In this document: positions 1,563-4,973 of the stretch, piece by piece | Numbering within the stretch: the stretch's first letter is position 1 | How the letters are laid out: the number at the start of each line of letters is the position of its first letter | Assembly (NCBI GenBank): GCA_964355645.1 | Contig: CAYHDI010000001.1 | Coordinates: forward strand, 158,897 to 200,938 | DNA length: 42,042 nt | Direction of reading: 5' to 3' | Source: an uncultured Candidatus Saccharibacteria bacterium | GTDB lineage: Bacteria; Patescibacteriota; Minisyncoccia; Phycocordibacterales; Zambryskibacteraceae | Made by a program: the position numbers and the translations under genes | Notes under the pieces: generated by a model | Seen by the model: the letters and a program-made list of their open reading frames with translations, nothing else | What the model was told of the DNA's origin: nothing | Databases searched by the model: none

Positions 1563-1600
1563 ATACGCTATAATTTATCTATAGCAAAAATATAGCGTAT
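1563..1600. repeat. 38-bp palindromic direct repeat, copy A (overlaps ATG of the PaaX/Cas2-like gene)
   Basis: ATACGCTATA-18nt-TATAGCGTAT; 32/38 identical to 2181-2218. Confidence 0.9.
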
Positions 1601-2165
1601 GGGCAAGTTAGAAGAGGGGAATAAAATAAGAATCAGAAGACGAGATTTACAACATGCAGTTTTGAATGCTGTTAAAATTACTGGTGTTTTAAGTATTGGA
1701 TTACTTGCTCCAAATGTGATTGGGGCGATGAGCAAACTCGGTATATTACCGAAACCACGACAGAAAGAATACGTGTCCTCTTCTGCTTCCAAACTTGTTA
1801 AACGTGGTTTACTTAAATTTGAAAATGGTCATTATAATCTCACAATTTCTGGAGAAAAACTTTTGCGTCGTTGGGAATTGGAAGATTATAAAATTAATAG
1901 ACCGAAGAAATGGGACAAAAAATGGCGAGTGATTATCTTCGATATTCCAGAAAAAAAGAGAAAAATGCGTCTGCAAATATCGTATCTTTTCAAACAATCA
2001 GGATTATATCGTTTACAGGATAGTGTTTGGGTTTATCCGTATGATTGTGAAGATATTATTGGACTATTGAAAACTGATTTCGGAGTAGGGAAGGATGTTT
2101 TGTATTTAATTGTTGATGAAATTGAAAACGATCGGCATTTGAAGGAAGAATTTCATCTTATATAA
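1599..2165 (+). CDS. PaaX-like protein: winged-helix region plus Cas2/VapD-like ferredoxin-fold domain
   Basis: LVKRGLL..YNLTISG wing; WDKKWRVIIFDIPE..GLYRLQDSVWVYPYD as in the PaaX central domain / Cas2-like fold. Confidence 0.8.
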   Translation: MGKLEEGNKIRIRRRDLQHAVLNAVKITGVLSIGLLAPNVIGAMSKLGILPKPRQKEYVSSSASKLVKRGLLKFENGHYNLTISGEKLLRRWELEDYKINRPKKWDKKWRVIIFDIPEKKRKMRLQISYLFKQSGLYRLQDSVWVYPYDCEDIIGLLKTDFGVGKDVLYLIVDEIENDRHLKEEFHLI

Positions 2166-2180
2166 ATTTGATATCCATTG

Positions 2181-2218
2181 ATACGTCATAAGTTGTCTAT
2201 AGCAAAATTATAACGTAT
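2181..2218. repeat. 38-bp palindromic direct repeat, copy B (15 nt after stop)
   Basis: ATACGTCATAAGTTGTCTATAGCAAAATTATAACGTAT. Confidence 0.9.
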
Positions 2219-2804: not shown

Positions 2805-4973
2805 ATGGAACGCGATTATCCTCTAGAACGAGTTAGAAATTTCGGAATCATTGCGCATATTGACGCGGGGAAAACGACCACTTCAGAGCGCGTACTTTTT
2901 TATACTGGTTCACAACACAAAATCGGCGAAGTACACGAAGGGGATACAACTACGGATTGGATGGAACAGGAACGTGAACGAGGAATTACTATTACCGCAG
3001 CGGCTATCACTTGTTTCTGGGCTCCAACTTATATTCCTGTTGCTGAACATGAGAAGAAAGAAAACAAATTTAGATTCAACATTATTGATACTCCCGGACA
3101 CATCGACTTCACCGTAGAAGTGAAGAGGAGTTTGCGTGTCCTCGACGGAGCGGTGGTGGTTTTCGACGGCGTAGCCGGAGTAGAACCTCAATCCGAAACC
3201 AACTGGCGCTATGCTGAAGAAGCTCAAGTGCCGAGAATTTGCTTCATCAACAAACTTGATCGAATAGGAGCAAATTTCGAACGTTCATACAAATCTATTT
3301 TGGACAGACTTTCCAAGAAGGCCGTGCGTTTCCAGATTCCAATCGGAGAAGAAGATCATCATGAAGGAGTGATTGATTTATTGAAGATGAAAGCATATTA
3401 CTTTGAAGGCAACATGGGTAGTCAGGTGATTGAGAAGGAAATTCCAGAAAATTTAAAAGCCGAGGCAGAGAAATATCGCGCCGAACTCATCGAACGCATC
3501 GTTGAAAATGATGAAGATTTGATGACCGCCTATCTTGAAGGCAAAGAAATTTCTATTTCCGCACTCAAGGAAACTTTGCGCAAAGCCGTGATTGCAAACA
3601 AAATTTTTCCAGTCATGACCGGTTCTGCGCTCAAAAACAAAGGGGTTCAACTCGTACTCGATGCAGTGGTGGACTATCTCCCGTCTCCGCTCGATATTCC
3701 TCCGATTAAAGCAATTGATGCGAACACTGGCGAAGAAGTTCTTCGACACGCTTCCGATTCAGAACCGTTTTCGGCGCTTGCTTTCAAACTTCAAGCCGAC
3801 CCATTCGTCGGACAACTCACGTTCTTTCGAGTTTATTCAGGAACAATTGAATCTGGAAGTTATATTTATAACTCTACAACAGGGAACAAAGAACGCCTCG
3901 GACGCATCGTTCGTCTCCAAGCTGACAAACGTGAAGAAGTGAAAAAAGTTTTCGCTGGAGAAATTGCCGCCGCGGTCGGACTCAAGGATGCGAAGACTTC
4001 GCATACTTTCTCGGATGAAAACAATCCTATTATCCTTGATCAAATTACTTTTCCTGAACCGGTTATCTCGCTTCGCATTGAACCGAAGACCAAGGCCGAC
4101 CAAGAGAAAATGGGTATGGCTCTCAAACGACTTTCAGATGAAGACCCAACTTTTAAAATTAAATCAGATCAAGAAACAGGAGAAACAGTCATTATGGGAA
4201 TGGGTGAACTCCATCTTGAAATTATTGTGGACCGCATGAAGCGCGAATTCAGCGTTGAAGCCAATGTGGGCAAACCTCAAGTGGCTTACAAAGAAACTAT
4301 CACCGGTGAAGCCGAAGTCGAAAACAAATATATCAAACAGACTGGAGGGAAGGGCCAGTACGGTCACGTGAAAATTAAAATCAAACCACTTCCCAAATAT
4401 GATCCAGAAGAAAAGGTGCCGAAGAATGCTCACAGAGAAGTTGGTTTTGAATTTATTGATGCAATTAAAGGAGGAGTTATCCCTCAAGAGTTCATTCCTG
4501 CCGTTGAGAAGGGAGTGAAGGAGGCGATGGAACGTGGAATTCTCGCCGGCTACAAGATGGTGGACATTTCATGTGAATTGAATTTCGGTTCGTATCACGA
4601 CGTGGACTCTTCGGAAATCGCTTACAAGATTGCTGCCTCGCAAGCTTTCCAAGAAGCTGCCAGAAAAGCCAAACCGGTTATCCTCGAACCGATTATGAAA
4701 GTCGAAGTCGTTGTTCCTGAAAAGTTCATGGGTGACATCACCGGCAACCTTTCTTCGAAGCGCGGACAGATTGAAGCCATGGAAGATAGAAACGAATTGA
4801 AAGTCATTCGAGCGATGGTTCCTCTTTCAGAAATGTTCGGCTATGTGACCAATCTTCGTTCAATGACCGAAGGTCGAGGTTCTTCGACTATGGAATTCGA
4901 CCACTATGCGATTGTTCCTCCAAATGTGGCCACTACTATTATTGAACAGAGAACAGGAGTGAAGACAGCCTAA
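2805..4973 (+). CDS. fusA: Elongation factor G
   Basis: [23 protein letters not shown] motifs; 722 aa. Confidence 0.99.

Follow-up and report, generated by a model that had tools for sequence, protein, structure and literature searches.

Between rpsG and fusA of an uncultured Candidatus Saccharibacteria bacterium (GTDB family Zambryskibacteraceae) lies a small gene bracketed by two copies of a 38-bp palindrome. We provide comparative evidence that the gene belongs to a large family encoding minimal PaaX-type regulators, whose members each lie between two putative operators of their own, and that the encoded protein is probably an autorepressor which would bind both palindromes. The stretch of DNA that we analyzed, hereafter the window, spans 42,042 nucleotides (positions 158,897 to 200,938 of contig CAYHDI010000001.1, assembly GCA_964355645.1). 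The gene occupies positions 1599 to 2165 of its forward strand and encodes a protein of 188 amino acids that we term mini-PaaX; the upstream palindrome, copy A, lies at 1563 to 1600 and the downstream palindrome, copy B, at 2181 to 2218. The host is an ultra-small groundwater bacterium whose genome comprises 549,535 bases on 9 contigs, with a completeness rating of 100%. A preliminary description of the locus had left two readings side by side, a repeat-gene-repeat cassette and an autoregulator that loops its own gene. Autoregulation is well supported by inference from a bracket that is specific to its locus, a −10 box on the promoter side, covariation between protein and site, and an operator span like that of PaaX.

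The two copies were recovered by a repeat search as a direct pair of 38 nucleotides, 84% identical (32/38), with 618 nucleotides from start to start. A degenerate 38-mer built from both copies and allowed up to three mismatches has no match in the window other than these two places and none in 100 dinucleotide-shuffled sequences. The core TCTATAGCAAAA is exact in both copies and has three matches at one mismatch or fewer, a number reached by 0 of 100 shuffles. The arms of copy A, ATACGCTATA and TATAGCGTAT, are complementary at 10 of 10 positions about a dyad axis that falls between 1581 and 1582, within CTATAG; copy B is also palindromic, with its axis between 2199 and 2200. The repeat search and the shuffles thus bear out the similarity and the central dyad first described for the pair, and the remark that copy A supplies the AT of the start codon is equally correct, its last two bases (1599-1600) lying within the ATG at 1599-1601. 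The left arm of copy A contains a TATAAT at 1569-1574. Copy B starts 15 nucleotides past the stop codon, and the corresponding −10-like box in its left arm is degenerate (CATAAG); this altered left arm, ACGTCATAA, is common to the syntenic relatives G005 and G014. A promoter-like match in copy B (TTGTCT-17-TATAAT, 2193-2221) was dismissed as chance, as it leads into a terminator and such matches are no commoner than in shuffles.

Bracketing is the rule across a large family. At E ≤ 1e-5, relatives of mini-PaaX form 1,761 clusters at 90% identity, and at one genome per species at least 556 stretches of DNA encode one. From these stretches we drew 80 loci (set 1, with record titles of Zambryskibacteria and other Parcubacteria), and we took a further 80 from metagenome contigs (set 2). 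We excluded one locus with an in-frame TGA (L024), two in which no ATG was found (L084 and L110), two with short flanks (L098 and L113), and three metagenome loci without a complete open reading frame (ORF). The two collections are not fully deduplicated, with about five overlapping loci, and related loci are not independent. Among 18 homologous loci of relatives, nearly all carry a palindrome whose end falls on the ATG or close to it and its match immediately after the stop codon, and the sequence of the palindrome varies from locus to locus. A finder that treats the upstream and downstream flanks jointly, as opposed to a first finder that took terminator hairpins in some loci (L010, L020, and L026), places four concordant half-sites around the gene in 142 of 168 loci (~85%), compared with 2 of 400 random 567-bp segments of the host genome. 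The preliminary description would have abandoned its reading had homologues lacked flanking repeats; they carry them.

The two sites of a locus, moreover, belong to one another. Of 93 loci, 50 have a best direct match between upstream and downstream flanks above the maximum score (18) of 300 mismatched-locus controls, and 79 have one above the 95th percentile of those controls (11). The best match of a downstream site is its own upstream site in 92 of 142 loci, and its own partner ranks in the top three in 124; median site identity is 31/38 for own pairs versus 20/38 for all other pairs in these 142 loci. In the window, copy B matches copy A (32/38, rank 0) above the upstream sites of all other loci in the same set. 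Locus specificity rests on these flank-match controls and on own-pair ranking and not on a mismatched-locus control at the lax threshold of 11/19, which was concordant in 337 of 600 cases and is uninformative, a consensus being common to sites throughout the family. Among the loci situated after rpsG (G000, G005, G014, L156, and L157), the centers differ (TCTATAGC, CCTATAGG, GCGACCGC, and others), and within each locus the centers of the two copies are the same or nearly so. The unit of palindrome, gene, and palindrome recurs whole in unrelated neighborhoods whose genes differ in both content and strand. In 38 of 63 loci the first long ORF to follow is encoded on the other strand, so the downstream site cannot generally serve a co-directional gene and is intrinsic to the unit.

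The anatomy of the site and its placement suggest different duties for the two copies. When half-site positions are numbered from the dyad outward, the four half-sites of a locus agree at positions 1 to 4 (in 0.60 to 0.96 of loci) and 11 to 18 (0.64 to 0.98) and agree poorly at positions 5 to 10 (0.27 to 0.51), so that conserved central and outer blocks are separated by a loose spacer. Its center lies 17 nucleotides upstream of the ATG in 60 of 63 bracketed metagenome loci, as it does in copy A. Across the 110 loci with this 17-nucleotide geometry, a perfect TATAAT occurs in the left arm of the upstream site, where it is placed to drive the gene, in 61 loci, compared with 9 for the upstream right arm, 16 for the downstream left arm, and 5 for the downstream right arm. 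From this asymmetry, together with the degenerate box of copy B, we read the upstream copy as promoter and operator combined and the downstream copy as operator alone. The predicted transcript start, ~7 nucleotides past the TATAAT, would fall on the dyad axis (near 1581-1582).

The protein is a minimal relative of PaaX. The Pfam family PaaX_M ("PaaX protein central Cas2-like domain," PF20803) matches residues 103 to 174 (nucleotides 1905-2120) at 62.1 bits against a cut-off of 24; the other Pfam matches, to CRISPR_Cas2 and to a winged helix, are weak. CRISPR_Cas2 (PF09827) scores 16.4 bits, under its cut-off of 23.8; the NCBIfam cas2 model TIGR01573 scores 23.6, under its cut-off of 24.5; and the NCBIfam PaaX equivalog TIGR02277 scores 26.1, far under its cut-off of 264.55. 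Pfam gives no match to the PaaX_C domain in the protein, which ends at residue 188, nor does PaaX_C appear among the families listed for 81 relatives, and the Pfam PaaX N-terminal domain has no match in the protein at E ≤ 0.1. All 81 relatives match PaaX_M, and 49 of them also match CRISPR_Cas2 at E ≤ 0.01. Two AlphaFold (AF2) models, with predicted local distance difference test scores of 77 (from 17 sequences) and 83 (from 81 sequences), fold residues ~1 to 96 as a winged helix (helices 3-28, 33/38-46, and 55-68, a hairpin at 72-81, and a helix at 83-95), of which helix 55-68 (nucleotides 1761-1802) is the predicted recognition helix, and fold residues 109 to 172 as a beta-alpha-beta-beta-alpha-beta domain whose helix alpha1 spans residues 118 to 134 (nucleotides 1950-2000).

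Structure searches lead to the same relatives as the hidden Markov models, and the earlier statement that the PaaX central domain is Cas2-like stands on both. The best Foldseek match of the model in the PDB is Escherichia coli PaaX (8a39, E of 5e-5), followed by Rv0674 (3kfw) and MarR-type regulators; the matches also include the Cas2 chains 6k2e, 5zyf, and 3exc, with template modeling scores to the target of 0.47 to 0.62. VIA-align places residues 10 to 96 on PadR, VanR, and MarR winged helices (Z of 12.6, root mean square deviation of 1.4 Å over 80 residues), and profile matches to 8a39 and 3kfw span residues 55 to 147. The residues of the Cas2 motifs (FDI with D115, and LQxSVW) are at least 90% conserved in 81 sequences. 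Public records name the relatives "CRISPR-associated endonuclease Cas2," "Transcriptional regulator, PaaX family," or "hypothetical protein." The association with clustered regularly interspaced short palindromic repeats (CRISPR) is nominal, a matter of fold and motifs. The preliminary description had reported no CRISPR array, cas gene, or paa gene in the window, and its statement can be extended to the genome: in the host genome, rated 100% complete, we found neither Cas1 nor any other cas gene (the control was positive in 7 of 14 known genomes) and no match to PaaA or PaaC, and a 16-mer spacing scan found no CRISPR-like array. A CRISPR mini-array was rejected as an explanation of the repeats, there being no Cas1 and no array in the genome. 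Judged by its predicted domains and by the absence of Cas1, an array, and PaaA or PaaC from its genome, the protein is a two-domain "mini-PaaX," neither a CRISPR protein nor a paa regulator.

The protein and the palindromes also covary. Mutual information between protein columns and half-site positions, computed over 69 loci, has two peaks. The first pairs residues 54 to 63, at the start of the predicted recognition helix, with the outer positions 13 to 17; the second pairs residues 121 and 125, separated by a single turn of helix alpha1 in the Cas2-like domain, with positions 4 and 5 near the center. In tests on phylogenetically independent pairs, using trees built without the columns concerned, K121 accompanied C4 in 7.6 independent pairs against 0.2 in the opposite direction (median p of 0.016), and D125 accompanied G5 in 8.0 pairs against 0 (p of 0.008); eleven arbitrarily chosen control residues gave p ≥ 0.69. 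Because residues 121 and 125 came from a screen on the same data, we tested the associations again on 54 distinct metagenome loci less than 95% identical to the first set. Counting loci with both features, the residue alone, the base alone, and neither, we obtained 34/0/0/20 for Y/F58 with C15, 20/4/2/28 for K121 with C4 (p of 0.031), and 23/4/1/26 for D125 with G5 (p of 0.125). The direction of covariation replicates on the second set with modest statistics, a partial replication.

These data suggest how the unit might work. Mini-PaaX, acting as a presumed dimer, would bind the whole 38-bp palindrome, its two recognition helices reading the outer arms (..ACGTAT) and its Cas2-like core reading the central CTATAG block by way of residues 121 and 125 of helix alpha1. 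Copy A would hold the −10 box, the predicted start of the transcript at the dyad axis, and the start codon; since copy A overlaps promoter and start, bound protein would occlude and shut off its own promoter. Copy B, 15 nucleotides past the stop, would be a second operator, and it may serve in either of two ways. It could cooperate with copy A through a loop of ~620 bp, or it could act as a roadblock that insulates the gene from neighboring or read-through transcription. The latter option matters here because the gene sits behind one terminator-like hairpin and before another: on the forward strand downstream of rpsG, an 8-pair stem followed by the tail TTCTTCTTTT (1529-1547), and, closing the unit, a two-way terminator-like hairpin (2235-2258; CTCCC GAAA GGGAG with a T-run). 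We regard it as possible, at somewhat less than even odds, that the Cas2-fold domain itself recognizes double-stranded DNA by sequence, with the dimer core on the central CTATAG and the winged helices on the outer arms. The Cas2 dimer carries duplex DNA in the Cas1-Cas2 integrase, which the proposed DNA-reading core would resemble. To the broader proposal, which is joint with such reading, of a two-part, evolvable recognition code carried by a self-insulated portable unit that multiplies into private pairs of regulator and site, we give the same tentative credence.

The domain that would read the center could instead be a nuclease. On that account the protein is an active Cas2/VapD-like enzyme kept at low levels by its winged helix and twin operators, and the unit is a selfish module of a single gene that works in the manner of an addiction system. 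Toxic activity is known among VapD and Cas2 relatives, and such a role would agree with the conservation of D115 and LQxSVW, with the TIGR01573 score so near its cut-off and the many relatives that match CRISPR_Cas2, and with a patchy, multi-copy distribution. We nevertheless judge a self-restrained toxin improbable, as covariation places helix alpha1 on the center of the DNA, which is already a reading role for the domain, and as no conserved partner antitoxin gene accompanies what is a single gene with variable neighbors.

Paralogues within the same genome extend the argument for an autorepressor. The host carries four family genes, 100, 72, 69, and 51% identical to mini-PaaX, and the three paralogues have palindromes of their own. 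The family is present in 3 of 21 other genomes of the genus, with four copies each in G000 and G005, and sites of the mini-PaaX architecture are found in four of the 22 genomes of the genus, the very ones in which the gene family is present. The genome-wide search for the 38-mer that the preliminary description had proposed returned, by Hamming scan, two further copies of the window's site type in the host genome, at C1:9130-9167 and C1:17019-17056, whose similarity to the window site ends exactly at the palindrome borders. The former is flanked by the 3' end of the 5S rRNA gene and by a 261-amino-acid membrane gene without a Pfam match, and the latter lies 81 bp upstream of a PIF1-like helicase gene; mini-PaaX probably acts at these two solo sites as well. 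Apart from the 5S gene, neither solo-site region has a counterpart at the DNA level in the closest relative, G001. Of the other site types, that of the 72% paralogue is represented by four solo copies, including one 45 bp upstream of a DUF975 membrane gene, and that of the 69% paralogue by one or two, including one 60 bp upstream of a DoxX gene; the host-genome scan found none for the 51% paralogue. Solo copies thus number 0 to 4 per site type.

Several other palindromes and genes came to light beside these sites. The locus L024 (G005:C36:5944-6504) encodes a paralogue with an in-frame TGA after codon 11 and has kept its upstream palindrome, and a solo site matching that palindrome lies on another contig (G005:C33:966-1002). 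A palindrome of the form AGCAAGAAC(C/G)GTTCTTGCT occurs at least five times at gene 3' ends in the host (C2:20662, C2:30850, C2:72550, C3:52742, and C5:24086) and twice directly adjoins a solo mini-PaaX site. A second type, ACATACGATATATCGTATGT, is found at C1:6228-6259 and C1:17070-17095, with one copy 14 nucleotides from the solo site of the PIF1-like helicase, and may be the site of another regulator; palindromes built on GGACATCGGATGTCC lie at C2:7407-7440 and C4:4532-4570. The rRNA operon beside the first solo site (L003, host C1:7630-10667) runs on the minus strand with the 23S end, two tRNAs, and then 5S, and a LAGLIDADG-like ORF lies beside or within its 23S region.

Site diversity among paralogues bears directly on whether the palindromes might belong to a host factor, such as an Xer-type recombinase or a global regulator, and not to the encoded protein. 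The arms end in ATAA...TTAT, and it is the dif consensus that lies behind this loose likeness. A single host factor is ruled out by the presence, in one genome, of four paralogues that each have a different site, and a Xer/dif reading was rejected for the same variety of site types. The sites are, in addition, confined to genomes that hold the gene family and covary with residues of the encoded protein, and the central region of a Xer site is far shorter than that of the mini-PaaX site. We assign the host-factor explanation the lowest probability of all those considered, close to none.

Nor is it at all likely, though the chance is a shade better, that the palindromes function as RNA or single-stranded hairpins, that is, as stem-loops for mRNA stability or processing, or as single-stranded DNA in the manner of repetitive extragenic palindromic (REP) elements with their REP-associated tyrosine transposase (RAYT) genes. 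Both copies can fold (−9.6 and −7.5 kcal/mol, z about −3), copy B would lie in the 3' untranslated region before a terminator, and the intergenic solo copies bear a resemblance to REPs, in which a gene is flanked by copies of its own palindrome and further solo copies lie between genes. The inner palindrome of the mini-PaaX site, in contrast, is not kept paired at half-site positions 5 to 10, and its central block has no loop, so that a short outer stem would surround a loop of ~18 nucleotides. Mismatches in downstream sites are without wobble bias (54 G·T versus 55 A·C of 272; in upstream sites, 57 versus 38 of 266) and hence without a G·U excess. The predicted transcript start inside copy A would leave a 5' hairpin incompletely transcribed; the winged helix is of a double-strand-binding type; mini-PaaX lacks the HUH/Y1 transposase fold of RAYT proteins; the few solo copies of each type are a further difference from REPs; and no Rfam family reaches its gathering score within 1400-2900.

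The locus itself is an insertion hot spot. The window begins with rpsL (591-1004) and rpsG (1028-1498), the latter just upstream of the mini-PaaX unit, and continues with fusA (2805-4973) and tuf (from 5753). The preliminary description had the gene splitting rpsG from fusA; it does sit there, but it shares the gap with a second ORF on its 3' side, which encodes a membrane protein of 123 amino acids (2312-2683). Within that ORF, a 39-nucleotide direct repeat (2403-2507; 72% identical, 66 nucleotides apart) suggests duplicated transmembrane segments. A T/C-rich tract (1548-1562), together with the rpsG hairpin, directly precedes copy A, and the palindromes of paralogues are likewise preceded by pyrimidine tracts (upstream flanks of L020, L023, and L010). 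Hairpins resembling the one that closes the unit occur downstream of rpsG in G001, G008, and G009. Immediately upstream of the fusA start, the window has a further hairpin (2772-2804; GCAGG AAA CTGCC, a T-run, and TAAAAT) that is retained in insert-bearing relatives (G001, G005, G008, G013, G014, and L155 to L157) and missing from genomes with a rpsG-fusA spacer of 26 to 37 nucleotides; this region may be a replacement promoter or leader for fusA.

A comparison of rpsG-fusA spacers, which had been named among the checks to be made, covered the 15 genus genomes (host included) with rpsG on the fetched locus. The spacer measures 26 to 112 nucleotides in seven of them and 494 to 1306 nucleotides, with varied small genes, in six; the remaining two have no fusA within 1.5 kb of rpsG. 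The mini-PaaX unit occupies the gap in G000, G005, and G014, and the closest relative, G001, whose rpsG is 95% identical, has three other small ORFs there. The three closest metagenome relatives of the gene (99, 82, and 77% identical) are likewise situated in the rpsG-fusA gap, followed by 557, 226, and 1019 nucleotides of differing DNA. The 99% relative, strain L155, matches the window through copy B and 8 nucleotides more and then diverges before the hairpin at 2235-2258; in place of the membrane ORF it has a different segment with an opposite-strand ORF (~1380-1890, versus 2219-2800 in the window), and it rejoins the window at the fusA leader.

Diverged second copies of the 3' end of rpsG (its last 24 to 36 nucleotides) stand beside the inserted DNA in G014, G001, and L157. 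In G014 the relic is 29/36 identical and lies upstream of the unit (L036, ~2019-2054); in G001 it is 26/36 identical and lies downstream of an unrelated two-ORF insert (L028, ~2600-2635); in L157 it encodes AFAHLAW-stop (~830-855), ~78 nucleotides past copy B, which places the entire unit between the rpsG end and its relic. In the window locus, no second copy was found downstream of rpsG; the search did not extend to short target duplications at the palindromes. We regard the relics as marks of the hot spot because such scars also flank inserts without a mini-PaaX gene, as in G001. It would appear, then, that DNA of relatives enters the hot spot with one homologous end in rpsG, by flanking-homology transfer and not by self-transposition.

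These observations are the natural ground for the cassette reading, in which the palindromes are recombination or integration ends, the protein is an end-binding or nuclease component, and excision of a circle leaves a solo palindrome behind. The patchy, multi-copy distribution, the solo palindromes, the hot spot, the flanked unit of L157, the loss of synteny 8 nucleotides past copy B in the 99% identical strain, and the conserved Cas2-type motif residues would all suit a mobile element. A cassette in the sense of a unit that recurs whole in unrelated neighborhoods and sits in an insertion hot spot is upheld; repeats that serve as recombination ends are not. There are no near-identical copies, the host paralogues being 51 to 72% identical with differing sites, and the sole domains of the protein are the winged helix and PaaX_M, which gives no sign of membership in a transposon or insertion sequence family. 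Cas1 was not found in the genome, and the unit shows no evident recombinase gene, though recombinases were not searched for. In four sequencing runs (one of RNA and three of DNA), no contig joins copy A to copy B, although contigs drop rare forms; candidate joints from 1497/1498 to 2801/2805 were rejected as excision products, as the contigs concerned carry 13 to 17 differences per ~100 bases and come from relatives in which rpsG and fusA adjoin. By tblastn, none of 50,697 phage records matches, and 72,556 plasmids yield two distant actinobacterial PaaX genes and nothing else. The rpsG-end relics flank gene-less inserts too, so the scar belongs to the site, and the asymmetric −10 box suits a promoter and not the ends of an element. 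We accordingly hold a mobile cassette to be unlikely, if the least unlikely of the alternatives, and continue to favor an autorepressor.

A number of our own results weigh against that preference or against its extension to the Cas2-like domain. Residues 121 and 125 were preselected by a screen on the same data, their p values in the second set are modest (0.031 and 0.125), and the related loci are not independent; the Y/F58 rule is backed by one or two independent pairs on supported branches. The two sites are spaced 593 to 769 nucleotides apart (median 625) without helical periodicity (Rayleigh R of 0.143 versus a null 95th percentile of 0.188), a phasing test that is weak at ~600 bp. Two of the four solo sites of the 72% paralogue are placed not at promoters but at the 3' ends of genes, one following aspS and the other between a convergent pair. 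The RNA run contains one error-free contig on rpsG (1000-1206) and, on the regulator gene, nothing other than mismatched fragments, which are uninformative as to its expression. A pure DNA-binding role, lastly, would not obviously need Cas2 motifs that are conserved to 90% or more.

Known systems share parts of this arrangement. PaaX, the phenylacetyl-CoA-responsive repressor of paa genes in E. coli and Pseudomonas (PDB 8a39 and 3l09), likewise has a winged helix followed by a Cas2-like middle domain. In a review, its E. coli site is given as TGATTC-N27-GAATCA, a long palindrome of 39 bp compared with 38 bp here; PaaX is described there as repressing its own promoter by steric hindrance of RNA polymerase and as binding its inducer through its C-terminal part (PMC9493321). 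Mini-PaaX differs in lacking PaaX_C, in residing in a genome in which no paa genes were found, with rpsG, a membrane ORF, and fusA as its neighbors, in the extra conserved central block of its site that covaries with the Cas2-like domain, in a gene that is bracketed by two putative operators in most loci, and in having several paralogues per tiny genome. With Cas2 (PF09827 and TIGR01573) it shares the ferredoxin-like fold and the FDI/Asp and LQxSVW motifs, and it differs by its N-terminal winged helix, its sub-cut-off scores, and the lack of Cas1 and an array; the 38-bp repeats, unlike those of CRISPR, stand on either side of a gene, vary from one locus to another, and covary with the protein. 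The cI gene of phage lambda lies between the OL and OR operators, and cooperation of CI by looping tightens its autoregulation. The likeness is that of a repressor gene between two operators of its own. CI is an unrelated protein, and the lambda loop spans ~2.4 kb with several sub-sites in a phage immunity switch, whereas looping by mini-PaaX is hypothetical and its spacing unphased. In a full-text literature search from which subscription journals are largely absent, we found no paper on PaaX as a Cas2-like protein, on a PaaX/Cas2 crystal structure, or on PaaX in Patescibacteria, and did not come upon the mini-PaaX family.

Ultra-small bacteria of the candidate phyla radiation have few recognizable regulators, and a family of this kind would bear on how they are studied. 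If our reading is correct, the site of each paralogue could be read from the flanks of its own gene, and the regulons of uncultured organisms would become predictable from sequence alone. The residue-base pairs (58 with position 15, 121 with position 4, and 125 with position 5) would constitute a testable recognition code. Whether the Cas2-like domain reads the central bases is the most interesting point, for if it does, the Cas2-type fold would have a DNA-reading role and a DNA-measuring use outside CRISPR.

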